Source of the DNA: a virus
Lineage: Duplodnaviria; Caudoviricetes
Virus record (IMG/VR): IMGVR_UViG_2882613001_000002
Span: 22,773-86,772 of that record
Length of the DNA: 64,000 nt
Strand: one strand, 5' to 3'
Shown: piece after piece, positions 14,385 through 64,000 of the stretch
Position numbering within the stretch: the stretch's first letter is position 1
Layout: each line of letters starts with the position of its first letter
Made by a program: the position numbers and the translations under genes
The notes under the pieces: generated by a model
Seen by the model: the letters and a program-made list of their open reading frames with translations, nothing else
Database searches by the model: none
Told to the model about the DNA's origin: nothing

Positions 14385-16577
14385 TTATACGACAAGTCGC
14401 CAATATCCACGGGTCGAACCCTTGGCGATATAGACGTCAAGAATGCTCTCCCACATCGGTTTCTTGAACGCCTGCTGTGGGCTCTTGACGCCAGTATCCT
14501 CGATGAGGTCAGCGGTTTTGACATCAGGACTGCCGGCAAGATGCGCCGTTACCAGCTTTTCGAAGATCCGGATCTGATTTGCACCAAGAATGGCAAGCGG
14601 TGCTTTTCCTGGGATGCACAATGAAGCGGATTGGTTGCCTGACTTGAGCACTGCGACTGAACTGCCCCCCGCGGCAACATTCCGTCCAGAACTGAAGGTC
14701 TGCGCCAACGCATCACGCGACAGCACCAAGTCTTCGCCCTCATCGGACAGATGCGTGAGCACCGGAACGACGACATTCGGCCCGAGGCAGGTGAGTGTAT
14801 CGACGCTGGATGTCAGGACGATCCCGATCCCAGACGCATTCCGCGCACGCAGGAGTTGATCCAGCTTGTTGATGACCTGGGGATTACCCAAACGCCGCGC
14901 GAAATAGACCGGTTTGCGATGGCCATCCGTCCCCATGTCACCCATCAGGACCAAATCCTGATCAAGGACCTGCGCTCCCTTGCTTGTCAGCAATGGACGG
15001 ATGAGTTTCAGCACGGTTTCCTGAAGCCATTCGCGATTGAGTTGATAGCGTTCCAGATCGGCCGCTGGATGTTCGCCCGCATCCTCTCCAAACGGACCTG
15101 TCGCCGAGACCATTCCTGGCGTCGATGAGGGCTTGATCTCGACCTCACCGTCAATGTCGTCCTTGTCAATCAGCACGACATCCTGCCGGTCACGCCGCTC
15201 GAGCAGCCCACCCTCAATCAGACGATCAGGATCAAGCCCGATCTCACGCAAGTATCCACCCGTGACCTCGTCTTCCTCGAGATCGTAGAGGTCCACCAGT
15301 TGCGCGAACATGGCACGCAAATCGCCGTTGTCGATCTGACGGAAGGCGCTCAGGATCCCCCATTCGTGCAGCAACGCAAATCCGAGGCTGCGTTCGTCGG
15401 GGTCCTTGTTGCTCTGCAGATTGCAGCTCTTGACGCCTGACACAGTGATGTTGAGGGAGCGTTCCTTGGCGTCGCCTGCACGGTTGTACTTTACTGCAAT
15501 GCCAATGCGGCTGAAACTGGCAGCCCTCCGGAAGATGTTGCCCCGGCCGAGATACCTTGTCGCGATTTCCTGGATGTCATCATCGATGGCGACCTTGAGA
15601 GCCAGTTTTCGGCTCCAGTGGCCCAGACGGATTTCCACTTCCAGCACCCGCGCCACCTGGATTTCCACACCTTCGATCTTCGGGATTGAAAGTGCCAGAG
15701 ATGTGCGGAAACGGCTGAGGTTGTAGCGCTTCCAGGTCAGCGGTTTTTGAGAAATGTCGTGTTCCAGCGTAACCTCGGCGAAGGCATCGCCCACCTTCTG
15801 CCGAACAACCGGACTGTCGGCGCAAATTTCGATCTGCCTTTTTGATGGGGTGTAGATCAAGGTCGCTTCGTTTGGCGGTCGGAAATAGATCGTTCCCCGC
15901 CGCCCGTCGTCGCGATGGTCGTGCACGCTCGACAATGGGCCGCCGTGACGGACAATCAGCATGATTGATGTCGGATGCGCTTCAGTAGAAGGCAGGTCGA
16001 GCGCCTTAACCGTACAGATTGTCTTGAGTTCGAGGACCTCCGTGATCTTCGACGCCAGCGCGGTTTCATCGATTGCGTTTGCGTCAAGGTTGATCGCCTT
16101 TTCCAACTCGACCTCGAACGCATCGTACATCTTACCGTGGTCGCGGAATTGGCGTGCGAAATGAAAACTCTCCGCATCCTCGAAAGTCTGACGTGTGTTG
16201 AGAAACGCCCAGATGCTCCTGCAGAGCGGATCAGGCTGCGCCTCGATTTCCTGCGCCTGCTCTTCCGTGAACTGCTTGTCGACAATTGTAGCGAGGGATG
16301 AAATGCCCTTGCTGTCGGAAAGTGCACGGATCCTGCGACAGCGCTGTTCGGCTGGCCGCAATTCGTCCAGATCAAAATCTGACAAAATTCCAATGATTTT
16401 CTGCCGAAATTCGCTGACCGATTCTTCATCTGAAGGATTTGGAGTCTCCTCGGGCAAATTGAACTCTGGCTCGTTCTCGCCTTCCCGAATAGCAAGCACC
16501 GCGCGTGCAAGGTCGATCCGCGCGTCCTCGATCAACGCGAGGATATTCGGGCCAATCGGATTTGCTTTTTGCGCCAT
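14385..16577 (-). CDS. Large hypothetical protein (730 aa), possible C-terminal winged HTH
   Basis: Long ORF with natural composition; no catalytic motif recognised. Confidence 0.8.
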   Translation of the reverse strand: MAQKANPIGPNILALIEDARIDLARAVLAIREGENEPEFNLPEETPNPSDEESVSEFRQKIIGILSDFDLDELRPAEQRCRRIRALSDSKGISSLATIVDKQFTEEQAQEIEAQPDPLCRSIWAFLNTRQTFEDAESFHFARQFRDHGKMYDAFEVELEKAINLDANAIDETALASKITEVLELKTICTVKALDLPSTEAHPTSIMLIVRHGGPLSSVHDHRDDGRRGTIYFRPPNEATLIYTPSKRQIEICADSPVVRQKVGDAFAEVTLEHDISQKPLTWKRYNLSRFRTSLALSIPKIEGVEIQVARVLEVEIRLGHWSRKLALKVAIDDDIQEIATRYLGRGNIFRRAASFSRIGIAVKYNRAGDAKERSLNITVSGVKSCNLQSNKDPDERSLGFALLHEWGILSAFRQIDNGDLRAMFAQLVDLYDLEEDEVTGGYLREIGLDPDRLIEGGLLERRDRQDVVLIDKDDIDGEVEIKPSSTPGMVSATGPFGEDAGEHPAADLERYQLNREWLQETVLKLIRPLLTSKGAQVLDQDLVLMGDMGTDGHRKPVYFARRLGNPQVINKLDQLLRARNASGIGIVLTSSVDTLTCLGPNVVVPVLTHLSDEGEDLVLSRDALAQTFSSGRNVAAGGSSVAVLKSGNQSASLCIPGKAPLAILGANQIRIFEKLVTAHLAGSPDVKTADLIEDTGVKSPQQAFKKPMWESILDVYIAKGSTRGYWRLVV

Positions 16578-16773: not shown

Positions 16774-16977
16774 ATGAAACGACCCACCCCCCTGCCACCC
16801 GACCAGATGACGCCCGCAGAACGCCGCGCCGAGCTATGCGGCCTGCTGGCGCTCGGGCTGGTTCGGTTGCGGATGCGTGATCGGGCGGAAGTATCTGACG
16901 ATACTGGAGAAAGTGGACTACACTATCCGGCCGACGAATGGCGTCATGCAACTCCAACTCACCGGAGAAATGTATGA
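16774..16977 (+). CDS. Small hypothetical protein, first gene of the recombinase operon
   Basis: MKRPTPLPPDQMTPAERRAELCGLLALGLVRL; ATGA overlap with the DUF2924 gene. Confidence 0.7.
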   Translation: MKRPTPLPPDQMTPAERRAELCGLLALGLVRLRMRDRAEVSDDTGESGLHYPADEWRHATPTHRRNV

Positions 16978-17426
16978 CGACCCACGATCCGATCCCCGCG
17001 CGCCTGGCCGCGCTCAAGACCACATCGACGCCTGACCTAAAGGCGCAATGGCGGGAGTTGTTCGACAGCGAACCGCCGCCGTTCAATCGCCGTTACCTCG
17101 AAAGTCGCCTCGCGTACCGCATCCAGGAGCTGGCTTATGGCGGCCTGAAGCCGGAAACGGTAAAGCGGCTAGAAGCCCTTGGCGAGCAACTTGATGGCGG
17201 TGATCGCAAAAAGAGCCGCATCCGCGCTGACCTGACGCCCATCGTCGGGACGCGGTTGATCCGTGAATGGCAAGGCGTTGAACACCTCGTCACCGTCACC
17301 GCCGACGGTTTCGACTGGCAGGGTCGCCCTTATAAATCGCTGTCAGCCATTGCCTGCGCCATCACCGGTACGCGCTGGAACGGCTGGGTGTTCTTTGGCC
17401 TGAAAAACCACCGGAGGCGCGCATGA
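16974..17426 (+). CDS. DUF2924 protein
   Basis: LAYRIQELAYGGL, GTRLIREWQG and YKSLSAIA..ITGTRWNG motifs. Confidence 0.9.
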   Translation: MTTHDPIPARLAALKTTSTPDLKAQWRELFDSEPPPFNRRYLESRLAYRIQELAYGGLKPETVKRLEALGEQLDGGDRKKSRIRADLTPIVGTRLIREWQGVEHLVTVTADGFDWQGRPYKSLSAIACAITGTRWNGWVFFGLKNHRRRA

Positions 17427-18733
17427 CCAAGCCAATTGTCCGGAAACTGCGCTGCGCGATCTACACGCGCAAGTCCTCCGAGGAAGGGCTCGAGCAGGAA
17501 TTTAACAGTCTGCACGCGCAACGGGAGGCCTGCGAGGCCTATATCGCTAGCCAGCGCTCCGAGGGCTGGGTGCTCGTCCACGATCAGTATGACGATGGTG
17601 GCATTTCTGGCGGCACGCTAGACCGCCCGGGCTTGCAGCAATTGATGGCGGATATTGAGGACGGGCTTGTCGATGTGGTCGTTGTCTACAAGATCGACCG
17701 CCTCAGCCGCTCTCTGGCCGATTTCGCCAAGCTGGTCGAGGTGTTCGACCGCAATGACGTGACCTTCGTTTCGGTCACGCAGTCGTTCAATACCACCACA
17801 TCAATGGGGCGGCTGACGCTAAACATCCTGCTTTCCTTCGCCCAGTTCGAGCGCGAGGTCACGGCCGAGCGCATTCGCGACAAGGTCGCGGCGAGCCGCA
17901 AAAAGGGGATGTGGATGGGCGGGGTTCCGCCCTACGGTTATCGCGTTGAAAGTCGCAAACTGATCATCGACGAGGAGCGCGCAGCGCATGTCCGTTGGGC
18001 ATTCGAGCGGTTTATCAAAATCGGATCTGGCACCGAACTGGCCCGCGAAACCGCTGCCAAGGGCATACTGACCCCCAAGGGCAACCCGATGGACAAGAAG
18101 TTTATCTACCGCATGCTCAACAACCGCGCGTATATTGGCGAGGCGGTCCACAAGGGCGAAAGCTATCCCGGCGAGCACGACGCCATCATCGATCGCGAGA
18201 CGTGGGACCGCGTCCATGCCATCCTGCAGGAAAGCCCACGCAAACGCGCGGCCCGGACCAGAGCCAAAACACCAGCCATGCTCAAAGGCTTGCTCTATGG
18301 ACCGGACGGCGCGGCGTTTTCGCCGACGCACACCCGCAAACGCGACCGGCTGTATCGCTACTATGTCAGCCAGACCGTGCTGAAGCACGGCGCCGGATCG
18401 TGTCGCGTGGGCCGTGTCTCGGCTGGTGAGATCGAAACCGCCGTCATTGATCAGCTTCGCACAGTGTTCCGCCAACCCGAGATCGTGGCCGGGACATGGA
18501 AGGCGGCACGCGCCAATGCCGACGACATCACCGAGGCCGATGCCCGCGCGGCTCTGCAGCAGCTCGATCCGCTTTGGGATGAACTCTTCCCCGCCGAGCA
18601 GGCACGCATCGTGGCGCTTCTGATCGAGCGCGTGGACATCGGCACGGACGGGCTCAATGTCCGGCTGCGCGTCGACGGCCTCCGTGGCCTTGCGCGCGAG
18701 ATGTTTGCAGGCGGTATTGAGGCGGCGGCATGA
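17423..18733 (+). CDS. Large serine recombinase
   Basis: CAIYTRKSS (catalytic Ser), VVYKIDRLSRS and FAQFERE motifs plus a recombinase domain. Confidence 0.95.
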   Translation: MTKPIVRKLRCAIYTRKSSEEGLEQEFNSLHAQREACEAYIASQRSEGWVLVHDQYDDGGISGGTLDRPGLQQLMADIEDGLVDVVVVYKIDRLSRSLADFAKLVEVFDRNDVTFVSVTQSFNTTTSMGRLTLNILLSFAQFEREVTAERIRDKVAASRKKGMWMGGVPPYGYRVESRKLIIDEERAAHVRWAFERFIKIGSGTELARETAAKGILTPKGNPMDKKFIYRMLNNRAYIGEAVHKGESYPGEHDAIIDRETWDRVHAILQESPRKRAARTRAKTPAMLKGLLYGPDGAAFSPTHTRKRDRLYRYYVSQTVLKHGAGSCRVGRVSAGEIETAVIDQLRTVFRQPEIVAGTWKAARANADDITEADARAALQQLDPLWDELFPAEQARIVALLIERVDIGTDGLNVRLRVDGLRGLAREMFAGGIEAAA

Positions 18734-22237: not shown

Positions 22238-23907
22238 TGCACGCCTCCCGGCTGGGGTGCGGCTGGAAACTCAAACTGCGGAACTTCTAACTGCGCGTCA
22301 CCCTCGCGCAAAATCAAATCCGCCTGATCCTTCATCCATTCGAGCATGAAATTTCCTGCCGATGCGTCGCGGAAATTGATGAGATTGTGTCCGAGAGGCA
22401 GCCGCTCGACAGGACCCGCAGCGGCCTTTTCAAGTTCGATCACTTCCGCCACTCGACGCAGATCGGTCACGAAATCCATCACGATTACCTTGTCTTTACC
22501 GTGGCTCAGGCGAAGCCCCCGGCCAAGCTGCTGGACAAAGATCCGACGGCTATGCGTCGCGCGCATGAAGACAATTAGATCAACATCAGGCACGTCAACG
22601 CCTTCGTTAAACAAATCAACACTGGACAATACATCGATGTCCCCTCGTCGGAACATTGCCATAAGTCGATCGCGCTCGCGGGCTTCCTGCCTCGACGAAA
22701 TAGATTCAGCGCGCAATCCGTAACCACGAAGTGTTCCCGCGAAACTCTCAGCGTGATCAACCGTTGGAGAGAACACAATCCCACCCCGCCGCTTCTCGCT
22801 GCGGAAAGCCTCGACAATGTGCCTGGCCGCCTCATCGTCGCGAGTTGGCATCAAAAGCTTCCTGTTCAGTTGGTTTAGAGAATAGTTGTGCGAAGAGATT
22901 TCCTGTACAAACTCCCAGTCGACGTTGTCTGCCAACAGCCGATAATCGACCTCGCAAAGGTATTTCTGCCTCAGGCCGTCTGAGATACCGAGCCGAACAA
23001 GCGGCTTGCCCAATAGCTCATCGATGTCGAAACCATCGCCGCGCCACGGCGTTGCCGTTGCTCCACCGACCATAGGTGGCTCAAGAGCAGCGAGCGCACG
23101 CCGAAAACTAGCGGATCCGATATGATGCGCCTCATCGACAAGCACCAAGCCAAAATTTGGCAAATCATCGACACGTCCAATGATGCTTTGGACCGTCGCG
23201 AAAGTGATTCCATCGTAGAAAGATGGGGTCTCATCGCCCGAAAGCATATGCGTTGGAACCCACTTGGGCAGCTGATGCCAAAATCCGAATTGTAGCTGTC
23301 GAATGAGCTCACGTTTGTCGGCGAGAACGAGCACCCGGTTTTCGCGAATGAGGCCATCACGATAAAGATCCGCAACAACTTCCGCCATTACCACGGTCTT
23401 GCCTAAACCCGTTGCAAGCACGACTTGAGCGCGACCCGTGTCCGTGAGGCCTTCGCGAAATCTATCGACTGCCTCTTGCTGATATGGCCTTAGATCCCTT
23501 CTCGACTTAGGGTACTCGGGGACTTCTTGAGCAAGGTGCGCAAGACGAGCTGGATCGAGTAATTCGACATTGATCCCTATCCGGCGGAAACGTTCGATTT
23601 CGGCTAGGACTCCACCACCGACCGCGCGTGAAGTCGCCAGAAGCATACGGTTGGCACCATAGTATGTTCCGGCATCGACAACTTCTTGGACGGCATGTTT
23701 CGTGGGCGGGGCGGTCGTGGTGTGTTTGCACTGCACAACCCAAATCTCACCGTTTTTCACGCCAACGACATCTGCGCCTTTGTCGCCCGAACCACCAACA
23801 ACGCGCACATCATCGAAGCCTGCATGCATCAAAATTCTTGCAACATCGCGCTCAAACGCTTGCCATGGGCCACGTAGGAGTCGCCTGTCGTCAAGAAAGT
23901 GCGTCAT
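22234..23907 (-). CDS. Mrr-like restriction endonuclease fused to an SF2 helicase
   Basis: N-terminal FERDVA...GDKGADVV...VQCK, then LATGLGKT, DEAHH, TATP, NEGVDVP and QQLGRGLR motifs. Confidence 0.85.
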   Translation of the reverse strand: MTHFLDDRRLLRGPWQAFERDVARILMHAGFDDVRVVGGSGDKGADVVGVKNGEIWVVQCKHTTTAPPTKHAVQEVVDAGTYYGANRMLLATSRAVGGGVLAEIERFRRIGINVELLDPARLAHLAQEVPEYPKSRRDLRPYQQEAVDRFREGLTDTGRAQVVLATGLGKTVVMAEVVADLYRDGLIRENRVLVLADKRELIRQLQFGFWHQLPKWVPTHMLSGDETPSFYDGITFATVQSIIGRVDDLPNFGLVLVDEAHHIGSASFRRALAALEPPMVGGATATPWRGDGFDIDELLGKPLVRLGISDGLRQKYLCEVDYRLLADNVDWEFVQEISSHNYSLNQLNRKLLMPTRDDEAARHIVEAFRSEKRRGGIVFSPTVDHAESFAGTLRGYGLRAESISSRQEARERDRLMAMFRRGDIDVLSSVDLFNEGVDVPDVDLIVFMRATHSRRIFVQQLGRGLRLSHGKDKVIVMDFVTDLRRVAEVIELEKAAAGPVERLPLGHNLINFRDASAGNFMLEWMKDQADLILREGDAQLEVPQFEFPAAPQPGGVQ

Positions 23908-27282: not shown

Positions 27283-27395
27283 CGAGAGAACGCTTTCGGG
27301 TCTCCTGACACCTGTGGCGGTGCCTAGCCTGCCCCGCAAACCCCTTTGAAAACACGAAAAAATCCAGCCGCAGCCGAATCGAGAGAACGCTTTCG
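27283..27395. repeat. 16-bp direct repeat at the right end of Element 1
   Basis: CGAGAGAACGCTTTCG at 27283-27298 and 27380-27395. Confidence 0.7.
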
Positions 27396-27405
27396 CGGGG
27401 GCAAG

Positions 27406-27424
27406 TGGCGGAGGAGGTGGGATT
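27406..27424 (-). other. tRNA 3'-end remnant (tRNA-Ser-like); att core of Element 2
   Basis: TGGCGGAGGAGGTGGGATT is the reverse complement of AATCCCACCTCCTCCGCCA (T-arm/acceptor stem plus CCA). The similarity stops after 19 nt. Confidence 0.8.
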
Positions 27425-27476
27425 TCGCGCCCTCGATAGACCCTTTATTTGCAAGACATGAAATAGAGGTGTGCGC

Positions 27477-27513: not shown

Positions 27514-27804
27514 TTTATGTTACGGCACCTCACATAATCTGCAGGACATTCATCTCTATCCGTCAGCACCTCGCGCGCGTTCAGGTTCTCACGCCCTACA
27601 GGCGTCGATGGGCTGCTTGAGCGAAATTCGACATTCGATCATTTGCCTCTTTACTGCGCAGCGCCAGCAGACCGGGCGGAGAGCAGAAGTTCGCTGCAAT
27701 GCAGCCGAAAGACTGGATGTTTCACCAAAGCGGACATTTAGGCTTCCTCTTGAAAGCGTATCGTAGAAAGCAGATACTCAATCGACAGATGAGGTTGAGC
27801 GATA

Positions 27805-28881
27805 GTGTTTCATGCGAGTGAGGATAGTCTAGACGACCTATTGAGGGCCGTTTTCAAGCAGCTGCTCACAGGGCGCGGGAATTTTGAAGTCGAATCCAGC
27901 AAAGGTAGAAGCACTGAGGTCTTCGGTGCGCTCTTAGAGCTCAAGAACCCGCGCGCGCGACTAAGCAGATCGTTTTCGAAAGCTAAAGCCTTTAGTCCAC
28001 TTGGCGAGTTGTTTTGGTACTTGGCGGGCAGCGATAGCGTCGATTTCATCAAACACTACATCCCCAACTATCCAAAACTGATAAAAGACGAAGTTACTGC
28101 AAATGGGGCCTACGGACCGCGAATATTCGGAAAAGGGGCACTAGAAAAGCGTGACGAAGTTAGCGAGTGGGATCGGGTGATCCGTACTTTGCGTGAGCGA
28201 GAGGGCTCGCGCAACGCAATAATACAGATTTACGCTAACTCCGATGCTAGGCCCGAGAACGGCGACAAGCCTTGTACCTGCACCATTCAATTTGCGGTTA
28301 GGAATGGGCAGTTGTTGATGCACACGCATATGCGGTCCAATGACGCATTCTTCGGCCTCCCGCACGACATTTTCACTTTTACTATGCTTCAGGAGGTTGC
28401 GGCTCGTGAACTTGGGTTTGGGCTGGGTAAGTATACCCATTCTGTGACAAGCCTACACTTGTACCATGACTATGCGGCAACTGAGGGTCGCCCAGCGAAC
28501 ACTTCAACATCTGGCGCCAAAGCGTACTACAGGGAGGGTTTCCATGATTTCTCGCCAATGCCTGAAATGCCATCAGGAGACCCATGGCCGAGCATAGAAA
28601 AGGTAAAAATGGCAGAGCAAGAAATCCGATCTGGCAACATCGAGTACATCGCTCCAACAGACCTTGATCCGTACTGGCGCGACTTCATTGAGCTTTTCAG
28701 AATCCACAAAATATTTGAGGAAATGAAGAAGCGCGGAGATGGCCTTAGAACCGAGAGGCCCGAGCTGCGCAGAGTTGTGAAGGTCATGAAAGAAACTTCA
28801 CCGACCTATCGGATCTACATCCTCGGTAGGCTCGAAAGAAAACAATCCCCCGTTAGGGATCTATTTGAGAATGTAAGTTGA
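27805..28881 (+). CDS. Thymidylate-synthase-fold enzyme, predicted cytosine-nucleotide (hydroxy)methylase
   Basis: ELFWY, YGPRI, catalytic PC (C157), RSND and SLHLY motifs. GLPHD places Asp188 where ThyA has Asn. Confidence 0.85.
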   Translation: MFHASEDSLDDLLRAVFKQLLTGRGNFEVESSKGRSTEVFGALLELKNPRARLSRSFSKAKAFSPLGELFWYLAGSDSVDFIKHYIPNYPKLIKDEVTANGAYGPRIFGKGALEKRDEVSEWDRVIRTLREREGSRNAIIQIYANSDARPENGDKPCTCTIQFAVRNGQLLMHTHMRSNDAFFGLPHDIFTFTMLQEVAARELGFGLGKYTHSVTSLHLYHDYAATEGRPANTSTSGAKAYYREGFHDFSPMPEMPSGDPWPSIEKVKMAEQEIRSGNIEYIAPTDLDPYWRDFIELFRIHKIFEEMKKRGDGLRTERPELRRVVKVMKETSPTYRIYILGRLERKQSPVRDLFENVS

Positions 28882-28891
28882 GAGGTGGGTC

Positions 28892-29830
28892 ATGAACGGT
28901 GTCCACAAAGACAGAATAGACGAGTTCCTCGGAAAGATTGGCCAGATTGACGCGCAATTTGGCCCACTCCCCAGTATTGCAACAGCCCAGCGGAGACGTT
29001 GCTGGGCGCAACAAATCGTGTCCAGCCTACGTCGAATTTCATATACAGACACGTTGTTGATGCGTAGAGTGAATGCGGCGAGGTGTGATCCGCATTCCGG
29101 TATTTTCGACCCGGTACGAGGGGCGCTTCACTTTCAGAGAAGCGGACAACTCGATGAAGCGGTCTGGTTAACTTTCGTCCTCACCCATTTTGGAAAACAC
29201 GCGGTAGATGAATGGAAGCTGGCTGCAAATGTCTATGGTTCGTTTAGCGTGGGACCAGTTTGGACGTTCGCACAGTATACTGCAGACCGTGCAGGGTTCG
29301 AGAACATGTTGGCCGCAAACTCTGGCCGGTTGGCGGACGCCAACATTTCGGGTAGTTTTTCTAACCACCGCAAATTTCAGAGCAAGAAACATCAAGCCAT
29401 AGCGAAGACGTTTCGCACGTACTATGAGTGGCAGACTGAGTTCGGCGGATTTCGTGATCGAATGATCGCGACACATGCAAGTTTCGGTCAGGAACCCGAA
29501 GCGGCTTTCGATGCTCTCTACAAGTCCATGAAGGGGGTTTTTGGCTTCGGTGGAGGACGCCTCGGAAGGTTCGATTTCCTTACGATGCTCGGCAAACTTC
29601 AGCTTGCTCCGATTACACCAGGCAGCGTCTACTTGGATAAGGCAACAGGACCTCTTGCAGGGGCACGGCTTCTGTTTTTCGGTGATCGCGACCATCACAT
29701 TACCGGTAGAGCCTTGGAGCCTCACGTTGATGCCTTGGACGGGGTTCTTGGCGTGGGAAAACAGGTGATCGAAGACAGCCTTTGCAATTGGCAAAAAAGC
29801 CCTGATGTTTACGAGTATTTCCGAGGTTGA
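28892..29830 (+). CDS. aGPT-PPlase clade 3-like protein (HhH glycosylase superfamily)
   Basis: FDPVRGA, EAVWL..THFG, NHRKFQS, GRFDFLTMLGKL, TGPLAGARLLF and EDSLCNWQKSP motifs, recalled as that family's pattern. Lies 10 nt after the TS-like gene. Confidence 0.65.
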   Translation: MNGVHKDRIDEFLGKIGQIDAQFGPLPSIATAQRRRCWAQQIVSSLRRISYTDTLLMRRVNAARCDPHSGIFDPVRGALHFQRSGQLDEAVWLTFVLTHFGKHAVDEWKLAANVYGSFSVGPVWTFAQYTADRAGFENMLAANSGRLADANISGSFSNHRKFQSKKHQAIAKTFRTYYEWQTEFGGFRDRMIATHASFGQEPEAAFDALYKSMKGVFGFGGGRLGRFDFLTMLGKLQLAPITPGSVYLDKATGPLAGARLLFFGDRDHHITGRALEPHVDALDGVLGVGKQVIEDSLCNWQKSPDVYEYFRG

Positions 29831-30936
29831 GAAGGGACCGGCAGTTTAGTGCTCCCTTCCCATTTGTAACGGCGCTTTAGATCATTAAATTGGTGGGGCT
29901 GGAGCGCCCCAGCTTTTTGAAGCTGTCCGACAATAATTCCCGGTGTGACCCCGGCTTTTCGAGCGATTCTCCGTACATGAGGACGGGTCGGCATTGCGTT
30001 TAACATCTCATCTCGCAAGTCAGCCGAAACAAGCGTATCTTGAGCGAAAATGTCAGCTTCGCCTTCGAATACAGACGCTCCTAGCGGTGACGGATCAGCG
30101 CCATCCACCGAAATGTGGTCAGTGCCATGCAGAACCACGTGTGCGGCCTCGTGGAAAAAAGTGAACCAAAAATGGTCTTCACTTAAATAGCGAAAGCTTA
30201 GCAAGATAATCGGGTTGCCGTTTGGGGATGTCCAAGTGGCACCGCTTGCTCTACAACCTTTCGGGGCCTTCGAGCTTACCAGGCCAACACCTTCCTCAGC
30301 GCAAGCTTGCTGCAGTTTTGGAAAGAATAACTCCGGGCGCTTGAGCGCACATAGCTTCTTCAACTCAGTCAGACGTTTCTTGAAATTGCTCGCGGAAAAC
30401 TTCGCCAAGGTCAGGTTTTCAGCTTGCATCTCTCCGATACGCAGCCAGGCCAAAGTCGCCATCTCGTCGGCCTCAAAGGCAAAAGATGTTCGAAATGCAA
30501 CTTGGCCTATCCCAGCGGAGTACCGCTGGTTCCAACCGCTGATGCTATCGCATCCAAAAAAGTTCAGGATGTCCTCGGATAGACGCTCACCGCGAGAGCC
30601 TTTCGGCAGCCAACCGAGTTCTCGGAGGGCTCGAACTGGAAACGACTGCCCCCACCTAGACAACTCTTCGGTTGGCGCAGAACCTGCAAGCCGCGCTCTA
30701 TCTCCCAGAAACTGGTTATAGCGTTCAATCCAGAACTGGCGTGATGCACCAAGCTCCGAAGATAGGGCGTCTGCGATTTCTTCGGAAATCACAACGCGCC
30801 CTTCCATTATTCCAGAAAACAAGTCTTCTTCGAACCCGATGCGTTCGGCCAAATCGTGAATTGATTTTTTTCCAGCCGCAGCCAGCCTTGCGATTGTGTC
30901 GCCCGGTGGGGAAGCCCAGTTTGGTTCAAACATCAA
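29809..30936 (-). CDS. HTH plus ImmA/IrrE metallopeptidase (HigA-like antidote fusion)
   Basis: SPPGDTI..., SRQFWI HigA-type HTH and WFTFFHEAAH (HExxH). Confidence 0.85.
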   Translation of the reverse strand: MMFEPNWASPPGDTIARLAAAGKKSIHDLAERIGFEEDLFSGIMEGRVVISEEIADALSSELGASRQFWIERYNQFLGDRARLAGSAPTEELSRWGQSFPVRALRELGWLPKGSRGERLSEDILNFFGCDSISGWNQRYSAGIGQVAFRTSFAFEADEMATLAWLRIGEMQAENLTLAKFSASNFKKRLTELKKLCALKRPELFFPKLQQACAEEGVGLVSSKAPKGCRASGATWTSPNGNPIILLSFRYLSEDHFWFTFFHEAAHVVLHGTDHISVDGADPSPLGASVFEGEADIFAQDTLVSADLRDEMLNAMPTRPHVRRIARKAGVTPGIIVGQLQKAGALQPHQFNDLKRRYKWEGSTKLPVPSQPRKYS

Positions 30937-31283
30937 GCAAACACCTCCCCTTCAATTACGATAGCTTTCAGGTGGATTCGATGAGCATCTTTCCACGCTT
31001 CGTCTCCAACGCCGGATGCAGCTATCACCGTCTTCAGTGTGCAGCCAGTGGATACGAACCAGTCCAGCTCAAAGGTGCCTTCTACTTTCGTCGCCGAAAG
31101 CGGTCCCATAGGTACGTCACCGGCAAAGAACGCCGCCCTGAAATCCGCCACCAAACCAATGAACGCCTGACCGTCCTCACTTCCGAGGTGACGGTAGGCT
31201 TTCTTGCGTTCTGTTGCCAAGTCCCTCATGAGCTTGCTCGAAAAAGTCGGTTCCAAGGATCCAGCATCCCAAAAGTTGCACAA
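30933..31283 (-). CDS. HigB/RelE-like small protein (start may be TTG 31256)
   Basis: A..LG.....ADFRAA...D...G and W...RI.L..I pattern. Overlaps the start of the HTH-ImmA gene. Confidence 0.55.
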   Translation of the reverse strand: MCNFWDAGSLEPTFSSKLMRDLATERKKAYRHLGSEDGQAFIGLVADFRAAFFAGDVPMGPLSATKVEGTFELDWFVSTGCTLKTVIAASGVGDEAWKDAHRIHLKAIVIEGEVFA

Positions 31284-31820
31284 AATGGAGCCTTGGAAGG
31301 CACGTCGCTTACAATATCTTCCCAGCAGTCATACATGCAGCGGGTGTAGCGGGCGTGGTCGCGAAAGTCACTAGCGAACTGTCGTGCGGATAGGACCCGC
31401 TGGCAACATCTGCCACACTGATCTGTTTGGGAACGATGCGCAGAGTGGCTCAATGCCGATGCTGACCAAGGAAAGGGGCTCGATGCGCGAGCGCCTCCGG
31501 ATGTACCTGATGGACTATCAGCTCTATGCGGGCCTCTTCAGTTGCAGGGCGTGCCGCGCTTCCTTCTCGGCGGCTGTATCCTTCACCCTGTACAAGGCGC
31601 GCGAGGTTTCTGCGCCGTCGCCAATTCTGGGTAATGCTGCGCAGTGTCTATACGACTGCTATAGAGGAGCTGGAGCGCAGCATTATGATCCTCCGCGAAG
31701 GTCAGCTCTGGGCCGGTCGTGTCGTTCAGCCACGATAAGGCTCTGCCGATCAGCGCACCCGCTCCCTGTGTATTCGGAGCGTGTCGTCAAGTTAGGCGGG
31801 GCGTTTCCGCCCCGCTCAAG

Positions 31821-62746: not shown

Positions 62747-64000
62747 CTACAGCGCGACCAGCTGGACCGCCGCAAGCTTAGCGGGCAGGCCGCCACCCTC
62801 GCCGTAGCGCTGACGCCCCAAAGCGTGCCCCATCAAATCACGGCGCACCCTCTCATCGACACCTGCCGTCAGCAAGCGATCCTCAAACGAATGGCGCAGC
62901 CCATAGATCGTATGATCGGGCGTCTCCTGCAGGCCGTTCTGGGACAGGAATTTGTTGATCGTCGCCGACAGGCCCGGCTTGTCGTGATACCGCGACAGGC
63001 CGCCCTCGCGCAGCGCCTCCAGAGACACGCCCGCCAGCGGGATTTCGCGCTCGCTCGTGTGGCTTTTCAACTGTCGACCCTCGCCTCTGATCAGCACATG
63101 CGGCACGTTAGCTGTCAGATCAATGTGGTGTGGATGCAGCGCCGCGGCCTCGCTCAGACGCATCCCGGTATTGACCATGGATAGAACAATCCGTCGGGCG
63201 TCTGCATTCAGCCCCGCGAGGCCCGGCAGAAGGCGCGTGCGGATCCACTCGGTTGAATACGGTGGGCGCGTTCCAGGCTTGCCTTCCTTGAACGCAAGGC
63301 CTGCCACCGGTGGCACAAACCCCAGCCGCTTGCGCGACGCAACCGTGCGCAGGACCGTTGCAATATAGGTGAAATCCTTGTTCGCCGAATGCGGCTTGAT
63401 GCCGTCATCGGCAATCCTGTCCAGCCACCATTCGCGAAAGTCCTGCATGTCATCATGACTGATCTGATCGATCGGCACATCACCGATCACCCCGATCAGA
63501 TTGTTGATCGCCTTGATATGCGGATTGCGCCAGCGCCGGATCTGATCCGGTGATTTCTCCAGCGTCTTTTCGCGCGCCAGAGACCAGTACAGTTCCAAGG
63601 CGCTGCTGATCGTCATCTGCGGCGGCTGGGCACCGCCAAGCACAGCCCGCGCTTCCAGCGGATCCGGCACGCCGTCGCGCACCGGCACGGCCTCTACCCG
63701 CGACAACAACTGATCAACCGGCAGCTTGGCCACATCCTCTGCCTGCCGGAATCGGAACCCCCGCGCGGCGGCCAGATCGCGCGCCGCTGACCATGCCGCA
63801 TCGGCATCGCCGTCCGCGCCAGCCCTGCGCGCTTCCCAGCTGTCGATCAGCTCAGCCCAGACGCGCGCCGCCTTTTCACGTGCGATCATTTCGCTGTCGG
63901 TATGCAGCGACAGCTTGACGAACGTGCGCGCCTCGATCGCCGCATAGCGCGACGGCACACGCCGACGGAGGAGGAAAGTTTTACCGCGCTTGATGATCAT
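62747..64000 (-). CDS. int: Tyrosine integrase with a DUF6538-like N-terminus
   Basis: TGMRLSE, LKS...REIPL, YGLRHSF, LMGH and RYG catalytic motifs. Confidence 0.9.
   Translation of the reverse strand: MIIKRGKTFLLRRRVPSRYAAIEARTFVKLSLHTDSEMIAREKAARVWAELIDSWEARRAGADGDADAAWSAARDLAAARGFRFRQAEDVAKLPVDQLLSRVEAVPVRDGVPDPLEARAVLGGAQPPQMTISSALELYWSLAREKTLEKSPDQIRRWRNPHIKAINNLIGVIGDVPIDQISHDDMQDFREWWLDRIADDGIKPHSANKDFTYIATVLRTVASRKRLGFVPPVAGLAFKEGKPGTRPPYSTEWIRTRLLPGLAGLNADARRIVLSMVNTGMRLSEAAALHPHHIDLTANVPHVLIRGEGRQLKSHTSEREIPLAGVSLEALREGGLSRYHDKPGLSATINKFLSQNGLQETPDHTIYGLRHSFEDRLLTAGVDERVRRDLMGHALGRQRYGEGGGLPAKLAAVQLVAL

Follow-up and report, generated by a model that had tools for sequence, protein, structure and literature searches.

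Introduction

What would a bacterium or its prophage gain from a nucleotide-modifying enzyme encoded next to a relative of phage base-hypermodification enzymes, with no kinase to accompany them? The question is raised by a 64,000-nucleotide stretch of a Caudoviricetes record (IMG/VR IMGVR_UViG_2882613001_000002, positions 22,773 to 86,772), hereafter the window. At positions 27805 to 29830 it carries two adjoining genes, one for an enzyme of the thymidylate synthase (TS) fold and one for a protein of the aGPT-Pplase family, which has been in Pfam since its definition in 2013. The second protein belongs to clade 3 of that family, and no experimental characterization of this clade was found, in agreement with the original prediction made from the sequence. 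That prediction regarded the pair as a stand-alone two-gene system and offered two functions, namely defense against phages or self-modification of prophage DNA as a shield against restriction. Here we describe the pair as half of an invariant four-gene cassette, the other half of which encodes a putative HigB-fold protein and a helix-turn-helix (HTH) protein fused to an M78 peptidase. The interpretation that we favor, at about an even chance, is that of an inducible anti-phage (conflict) module predicted to act on 5-hydroxymethyl-cytosine (5-hmC).

Results

Both enzyme genes are intact open reading frames (ORFs) on the + strand, each with its own ribosome-binding site, as originally proposed. 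They lie in DNA with a lower guanine-plus-cytosine (GC) content (0.50-0.52 over 28-31 kb, compared with about 0.65 in most of the window). Gene 1 (27805-28881, 358 amino acids) starts with the GTG at 27805, which directly follows an in-frame TGA and has a GAGG about 10 nt on its 5′ side. Between its stop codon (28879-28881) and the ATG at 28892, with which gene 2 (28892-29830, 312 amino acids) begins, lies a 10-nt gap that includes GAGAGGTGG. Two genes on the − strand, overlooked at first, belong to the same conserved unit. One of them (29809-30936) codes for a 375-amino acid protein with an XRE-type HTH and an M78 (ImmA/IrrE) metallopeptidase domain; it is convergent with gene 2, and the two 3′ ends overlap by 22 bp. 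The other, upstream of it (30933-31256), overlaps the start of the M78 gene by 4 nt and codes for a 107-amino acid protein of putative HigB/RelE fold; its TTG start at 31256 was picked from the family alignment.

The linkage of these genes was determined by a pattern scan of the genomes of 185,579 species, which resulted in 118 confirmed loci, 80 of which were kept for the counts. The MilA-like gene (gene 1) was found directly 5′ of gene 2 and on the same strand in 77 of the 80 loci, and the three misses were contigs truncated on the upstream side, in one case within an accessory gene. The proposal that the two enzyme genes are obligate partners was thus upheld by the neighborhood survey. However, the pair does not stand alone. 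A homologue of the HTH-M78 gene directly follows gene 2 in 79/80 loci, and the 107-amino acid protein has a homologue in 75/80; in each of the five misses the contig stops short of the gene. Every contig of sufficient reach has the full set of four. When the flanking ORFs of all loci were clustered, nothing else proved conserved besides two optional genes, and neither a kinase nor a radical S-adenosylmethionine (SAM) gene is part of the cassette here or in the 80 related loci, which extends what had been noticed in the window. Measured against the window copies, the identities of the TS, PPlase3 and HTH-M78 proteins rise and fall together (r about 0.97). In Devosia, gene calls that were made independently and labeled with Pfam gave the same four genes. 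Among 400 sampled Alphaproteobacteria, gene 2 was present only in the reference genome and one other, and the same two genomes carry close homologues of gene 1 adjoining it. These results indicated that the unit is a four-gene cassette composed of two enzymes and a toxin-antitoxin-like switch, and the description as a stand-alone two-gene system is not supported.

The amino acid sequence of gene 1 matches the Pfam model Thymidylat_synt (PF00303, 8e-21) over residues 65-223 only, and every named homologue among the best 120 of a protein search is labeled "thymidylate synthase". Its best solved relative is MilA (PDB 5b6d/5jnh, E 1e-43; 1.2e-43 for 5b6d), aligned over residues 36-321 and including the extra C-terminal helical domain of MilA. 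MilA is the CMP 5-hydroxymethylase of mildiomycin biosynthesis; its active site includes the nucleophile C155 as well as E68, H216 and Y218, and the ribose preference of MilA and BcmA is set by Lys133 and Ala176 (PMC5175136). Conservation in gene 1 was assessed in an alignment of 77 cassette homologues, counting those that have a residue at the column in question. Residues C157, E68, H218, Y220, D188, R136 and S178 are kept in 75-77 of the 77. Cys157, singled out in the original prediction as catalytic, aligns with the MilA nucleophile Cys155. The assignment to a cytosine-type nucleotide enzyme also stood, with D188 (76/77) at the cytosine-specifying position, which is occupied by D186 in MilA and by Asn177 in ThyA. 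In place of the MilA residues Lys133 and Ala176, all homologues with a residue at those positions have Arg136 and Ser178, the deoxy-type residues found in T4 deoxycytidine monophosphate (dCMP) hydroxymethylase and in ThyA. Because of this replacement, gene 1 is predicted to act on dCMP rather than CMP, that is, to be a dCMP C5-hydroxymethylase. That its product would be hydroxymethyl and not methyl is suggested by analogy only with MilA, the closest characterized relative. Gene 1 thus shares with MilA and T4 gp42 the TS fold, the Cys nucleophile and the cytosine-specifying Asp, and with MilA the C-terminal helical domain, but its context is a defense-type cassette instead of an antibiotic cluster or a phage replication module.

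Gene 2 matches two Pfam models over their full length, aGPT-Pplase3 (PF18746, 6e-85, 285 bits with a cut-off of 25) and ADDT (PF18724, 9e-80, 268 bits with a cut-off of 26.2). A sequence search of the PDB with gene 2 gave no match. An AlphaFold model built from 45 sequences reached a predicted local distance difference test (pLDDT) score of 93.7; plain Foldseek with this model returned nothing below E 0.4, and VIA re-alignment of candidates was then used. The best structural match was PaMx11 gp46, known as PUGT (8z2n; Z 9.9, root-mean-square deviation 4.7, 221 residues), followed by 3-methyladenine glycosylases, AGOG, OGG1, EndoIII and Qng1 (Z 8.4). The profile searches and the structural model therefore agree with the identities first assigned to the two proteins, the TS fold for gene 1 and an aGPT-PPlase3 protein with helix-hairpin-helix (HhH) fold for gene 2.

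PUGT is a 5-phosphomethyl-dU glycinyltransferase in which Cys247 is the proposed nucleophile and Glu243 the proposed metal or acid ligand (PMC11472151). A second relevant enzyme, M6 gp51, is a biochemically proven glycine:DNA transferase, and the cognate Cys and Glu are essential in the clade 2 enzymes M6 gp51 and ViI gp247 (PMC8989533). M6 gp51 matches the same Pfam ADDT model as gene 2 (1.4e-46). Residues E294, D295 and C298 of gene 2 are invariant in the 45 sequences, and E294 and C298 align with E243 and C247 of PUGT and with M6 gp51. When the gene 2 family was compared with six clade 2 phage enzymes using hhalign (E 5e-4, probability 31%, 196 columns), the invariant E294-D295-S-L-C298-N-W aligned with E243-T244-x-x-C247-K-W of PUGT. 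In the same alignment, and with a probability of only 31%, R160 is paired with the DNA-binding R94 of PUGT, the invariant D228 with its glycine-binding K150, and D73 with D24. An insertion specific to clade 3 (His/Gly/Lys/His) is located at residues 99-103.

Judged from these alignments, the catalytic core of the transferases (Glu-x3-Cys) is retained in gene 2. The likeness to PUGT and M6 gp51 includes the Pfam ADDT model, a two-lobed helical fold like that of HhH glycosylases, and the Glu-x3-Cys motif followed by Trp. However, unlike these enzymes, gene 2 is bacterial or prophage cargo and not a gene of a lytic phage, it has no 5-hydroxymethyl-deoxyuridine (5-hmdU) DNA kinase as a partner, and the hydroxymethylase next to it is of the cytosine type. 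In addition, Thr244 of PUGT is replaced by the invariant Asp295, and Lys150 would correspond to the invariant Asp228. A different base and co-substrate are therefore expected for gene 2; the change from Thr to Asp at the base-reading position and from Lys to Asp at the co-substrate position would be compatible with cytosine as the substrate and with another nucleophile. Plain DNA-glycosylase activity was considered as well and is unlikely, since no catalytic Asp of the kind that follows the HhH hairpin in glycosylases was found among the invariant columns of gene 2. Gene 2 was also searched for in longer or fused versions, and none turned up, which is weak evidence.

The two − strand genes resemble a known defensive pair. 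The 375-amino acid protein has an N-terminal XRE-type HTH (Pfam HTH_31) and a C-terminal Peptidase_M78 domain (9e-8), matches the PADLOC model PD-Lambda-2_B (PDLC03982, 2.9e-27), and has an HExxH motif (H262, E263, H266) that is kept in at least 90% of 72 sequences. The 107-amino acid protein has no match among the Pfam and PADLOC hidden Markov models. Its AlphaFold model (pLDDT 96) gave Proteus vulgaris HigB as the top Foldseek hit (probability 0.92), followed by RelE, YoeB and ParE, although these matches are weak (template modeling (TM) scores of 0.5-0.6, E at least 0.06). PD-lambda-2 (Vassallo et al. 2022) is an experimentally validated abortive-infection anti-phage system in which component A is HigB-like, component B is an HTH-peptidase that is toxic alone and is neutralized by A, and component C, related to the P4 antitoxin, is required for defense (PMC9519451). 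The pair in the cassette shows the same order of a small protein, here putatively HigB-like, followed by an XRE-HTH-M78 fusion, with overlapping genes and an intact HExxH. On the model and sequence evidence, it resembles a toxin-antitoxin-like switch of the PD-lambda-2 A/B type. In contrast to PD-lambda-2, the cassette lacks the third component and has in its stead two convergent genes for enzymes that modify nucleotides or DNA; a co-oriented conserved gene equivalent to C was not found in the 80 loci, where only the two enzymes are otherwise conserved.

A switch of this kind could also simply stabilize a mobile element, and the closest solved relative of gene 1 belongs to an antibiotic pathway. 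The cassette might accordingly be a plain addiction module with unrelated metabolic cargo, or part of a pathway to a small molecule, as for mildiomycin or bacimethrin. This explanation is highly unlikely. Gene 1 has the deoxy-type Arg136 and Ser178 where MilA and BcmA, which act on CMP, have Lys and Ala, no other biosynthetic genes are conserved nearby, and the strict co-inheritance of four genes across phyla argues for one function. The secondary-metabolite version was rejected because these residues are of the deoxy type and no gene cluster is present.

Two candidate regulatory regions flank the coding part of the cassette. The promoter- or operator-like region 5′ of the TS gene (27749-27790, + strand), defined by alignment of 11 related loci, contains an invariant CTTGAA with a TTCAACC-like box downstream. 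A sigma-70-like match is located at 27750-27778, but such matches do not exceed the number expected by chance in the region. A 13-nt inverted repeat (31251-31298, − strand) surrounds the ribosome-binding site and start of the small gene; it is kept in related loci, L005 showing one compensatory change, and may serve as an operator for autoregulation or form a hairpin in the mRNA. The inverted repeat and the CTTGAA...TTCAACC region are thus candidate operators.

The block formed by the four genes and the two promoter regions, delimited by blastn at 27740-31632 (about 3.9 kb), is 88.8-90.2% identical to loci in different genera of Rhodobacterales (L001-L004), and the cassette block is 67-82% identical to a further set (L005-L012). 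The flanks of the matched loci are always unrelated, and the GC content of the core is lower than that of the flanks in 52/57 loci. No terminal inverted repeats or target duplications bounding the cassette were found. Because nothing beyond the cassette is conserved, it is a 3.6-3.9 kb module that moves horizontally as one unit. The carriers among the 80 genomes are Proteobacteria, Bacteroidota, Actinomycetota, Acidobacteriota, Planctomycetota, Chloroflexota and Saccharibacteria. The defense-island context anticipated earlier was frequent in the neighborhood survey, with Shedu, restriction and Bil neighbors. The 144 immediate neighbors of the loci include Shedu SduA (6/144), type I and III restriction subunits, Mrr nucleases, several PADLOC candidate (PDC) systems, and enzymes of mobile elements (integrases or transposases). 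The majority of the loci are islands in the chromosome that have no phage genes. The TS-PPlase3-M78 layout was also detected in 23 IMG/VR contigs, mostly predicted prophages and often at the contig edge, while a tblastn search of 50,697 INPHARED phage records with gene 2 found no homologue.

This distribution bears on the proposal of self-modification, according to which the pair would install a hypermodified base derived from 5-hmC in prophage DNA during lytic growth, or in host DNA, as a shield against restriction like that which lytic phages gain from thymidine hypermodification. The enzymes homologous to gene 2 have phage DNA hypermodification as their only known role, gene 1 shares the dCMP type with the TS-fold enzyme of T4, and the cassette lies at a prophage end here and is present in the 23 IMG/VR contigs. 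We nevertheless consider self-modification unlikely, since gene 2 is absent from the phage records searched, most loci lie in the phage-free chromosomal islands and the cassette is always tied to the toxin-antitoxin-like pair. Phages with hmC or hypermodified DNA, the T4 pathway being an example, carry enzymes such as a deoxynucleoside monophosphate (dNMP) kinase, a dCTPase or a DNA kinase, whereas the cassette has none of the three. Moreover, self DNA with the modification would be at risk from the adjoining nucleases, which are Mrr-type and type IV-like. The sequence by itself does not settle the choice between the two functions originally offered. The context favors defense, given the lack of a homologue in the phage records, the toxin-antitoxin-like partner, and the Shedu, restriction-modification and Bil neighbors.

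Two optional genes accompany the cassette in some loci. A gene for a 267-amino acid protein is present in 16/80 loci, between the TS and PPlase3 genes or, in L039 and L040, after the PPlase3 gene (loci L036, L041, L046, L049, L054, L055, L069 and L071 are among them; for example, L046:7090-7929). The protein has no Pfam match, and its profile gave nothing meaningful against PDB sequences. Its nearest Atlas clusters are in the uracil-DNA glycosylase (UDG) superfamily (TM 0.59/0.77), and it has GLNPS and HNxQSS motifs. From the Atlas placement and motif inspection only, the protein may be UDG-superfamily-like, and this is treated as a lead. The second optional gene, DUF4031-like and coding for about 101 amino acids, is found directly 5′ of the TS gene in 10 loci mostly of Burkholderiales type (among them L044, L046, L047, L052, L067, L072 and L078-L080; for example, L046:5786-6103; Atlas feature score 0.93). 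In Devosia (L113-L116, 1874-5810), an operon for Bil (ubiquitin-like conjugation) and a CapH/CapP-like HTH/M78 pair are located directly upstream of the cassette, and the integrase-bounded island that holds them begins with a tyrosine integrase.

In the window, the cassette is located between two groups of phage-related genes. Phage replication genes occupy 1-14 kb; a serine recombinase, a restriction-modification system and an operon with a GHKL ATPase and an Mrr helicase are found at 17-26 kb; and the genes at 34-64 kb code for tail, tape-measure, head, portal and terminase proteins and a tyrosine integrase. There are two integration enzymes, a DUF2924 protein plus a large serine recombinase (16938-18733) and the tyrosine integrase at the right edge (62747-64000), and this would fit a tandem arrangement of two neighboring mobile elements, or prophages. 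The most fitting interpretation of the cassette is that of cargo carried by the right-hand prophage at the end away from its integrase. About 310 bp to its left, a remnant similar to a tRNA 3′ end (..GAAATCC-N12-GCCA) lies at 27432-27406 (− strand), and a 16-nt direct repeat, CGAAAGCGTTCTCTCG, occurs at 27395-27380 and 27298-27283 (− strand). The region 27283-27432 is probably the distal attachment (att) region of this prophage. The claim that the pair lies just inside a prophage att is plausible, but ARAGORN and Rfam found no complete tRNA near the cassette, and no att-type direct repeat partner was found within the 64-kb window; the partner copy would be placed outside it.

Two further loci in the left part of the window were recorded. 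The segment 19317-26297, which codes for an Eco29kI-like nuclease, a C5 DNA methyltransferase, a 173-amino acid protein, an Mrr protein with a superfamily 2 (SF2) helicase domain (PADLOC mREase_IV, 4e-36) and a 797-amino acid GHKL ATPase, is a second defense-type block on the neighboring element. A 730-amino acid ORF at 14385-16577 (− strand), in a low-GC island, has no Pfam match and a weak match to phrog_37634 of PHROG.

Discussion

The analysis shows which genes make up the cassette, their catalytic residues, the fixed linkage of all four, the horizontal mobility and the defense-island setting. The substrates, product, trigger and phenotype that we infer for the cassette can be put together as follows. 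The HigB-fold protein and the HTH-M78 peptidase would act as the switch, and the other two genes would provide the working enzymes. Using Cys157 and methylene-tetrahydrofolate, gene 1 would convert dCMP to 5-hydroxymethyl-dCMP. Cys298 of gene 2, aided by Glu294, would attack C6 of the 5-hydroxymethyl-cytosine base, and the enzyme would then replace or derivatize the hydroxymethyl group. The net outcome would be that replication of phage DNA is poisoned or starved. C5-methyltransferases, which activate C6 covalently, can replace the hydroxyl of 5-hmC with exogenous nucleophiles, and no phosphorylation is needed; a route that does without a kinase is thus chemically plausible for gene 2.

The substrate of gene 2 is somewhat more likely to be DNA with the incorporated base than the free nucleotide. 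DNA is suggested by the relationship of gene 2 to DNA transferases that flip bases, by the Arg that aligns with a DNA-binding residue and by the UDG-like gene in 16 loci, while the free nucleotide is suggested by the lack of a kinase, the mononucleotide habit of TS-fold enzymes and the precedents of Qng1 and MilA/MilB. A specific version of the DNA pathway is that 5-hmC is written by the cell, or by its prophage, into the dCMP pool and hence into the DNA of a fast-replicating invader, where a kinase-independent, cytosine-directed relative of the amino-acid:DNA transferases (AADTs) would produce a lesion or bulky adduct. The HigB/HTH-M78 pair would gate the reaction, and the UDG-like enzyme would excise the base in some variants. 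Taken as a whole, this marking of invader DNA is possible but doubtful, and we propose it tentatively.

Alternatively, DNA may never be touched. Gene 1 would drain dCMP to 5-hydroxymethyl-dCMP, and gene 2 would release the base or form an adduct on the free nucleotide, resulting in dCTP starvation or a toxic nucleotide analogue. Depletion of deoxynucleoside triphosphates is an established principle of defense. Mononucleotides are the substrates of TS-fold enzymes, a kinase is missing from the cassette, and the two enzyme genes are tightly coupled with a 10-nt gap. Furthermore, the HhH-fold relative Qng1 (Z 8.4) acts on queuosine 5′-monophosphate, and in the MilA/MilB precedent a hydroxymethylase is followed by an N-glycosidase. 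On the other side, the invariant Glu-x3-Cys matches the active site of a transferase and not that of a glycosylase, Arg160 aligns with the DNA-binding Arg94 of PUGT (with the hhalign probability of 31%), and the optional UDG-like gene, as a lead, suggests a DNA substrate. An action confined to the nucleotide pool with either of these outcomes is, on balance, unlikely.

Several observations weigh against the proposed anti-phage module on 5-hmC. In E. coli, T4 gp1 is needed to phosphorylate hm-dCMP, and incorporation of hm-dCMP may consequently depend on a dNMP kinase encoded by the phage. No kinase to convert 5-hydroxymethyl-dCMP to the triphosphate is present in the cassette in the 80 loci, nor is there one in it to supply the phosphate leaving group that characterized AADTs need; therefore, incorporation into DNA and the transferase chemistry are both only proposed. 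The profile alignment of gene 2 with clade 2 is weak (E 5e-4, probability 31%), and Z values of 8-10 are moderate for an all-helical protein. The convergent orientation of the switch and the enzymes is unusual for a repressor-operator arrangement. PADLOC has no models for either enzyme. Finally, the aGPT-Pplase system that DefensePredictor reports may differ in layout from the cassette.

Comparison with known systems helps to place the cassette. Phage thymidine hypermodification employs a 5-hmdU DNA kinase and a dUMP hydroxymethylase, whereas the cassette has no kinase in the 80 loci and the partner enzyme is cytosine-type. Judged by its predicted enzymes, the cassette resembles this pathway but is not a member of it. 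Defense systems built from TS-type and base-hypermodification-type enzymes are described in the DefensePredictor study (Science 2026; PMC13092281). One of them, NTTI, includes an enzyme of the TS type and differs from the cassette in its kinases, its TIR effector and its experimental validation. The other is the aGPT-Pplase-containing system, with one known-defense homologue, which is predicted but unvalidated there (PMC13092281). The original claim that the system is undescribed holds as regards experimental characterization, of which none was found, but needs qualifying as regards prediction. In our prediction, the cassette is a bacterial counterpart of the toolkit with which phages hypermodify bases; it would be directed at cytosine, do without a kinase and be coupled to a switch similar to that of PD-lambda-2.

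If gene 1 is a dCMP hydroxymethylase, the label "thymidylate synthase" carried by its homologues would be corrected as a mis-annotation. If the cassette proves to be an immune system, nucleotide-based defense would be extended from depletion and chain termination to base hydroxymethylation and derivatization, a function would be assigned to clade 3 aGPT-Pplases, and the chemistry with which phages disguise their DNA would have been borrowed into bacterial defense islands under a toxin-antitoxin-like switch. Should the marking of invader DNA be true, it would represent a new immune principle; no activity would have been assigned to clade 3 before it, and AADT-type chemistry would for the first time involve cytosine. 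If the function is instead self-modification, the cassette would point to an undescribed hypermodified cytosine in bacterial or prophage DNA. The enzymes could also serve as tools for site-selective derivatization of 5-hmC.

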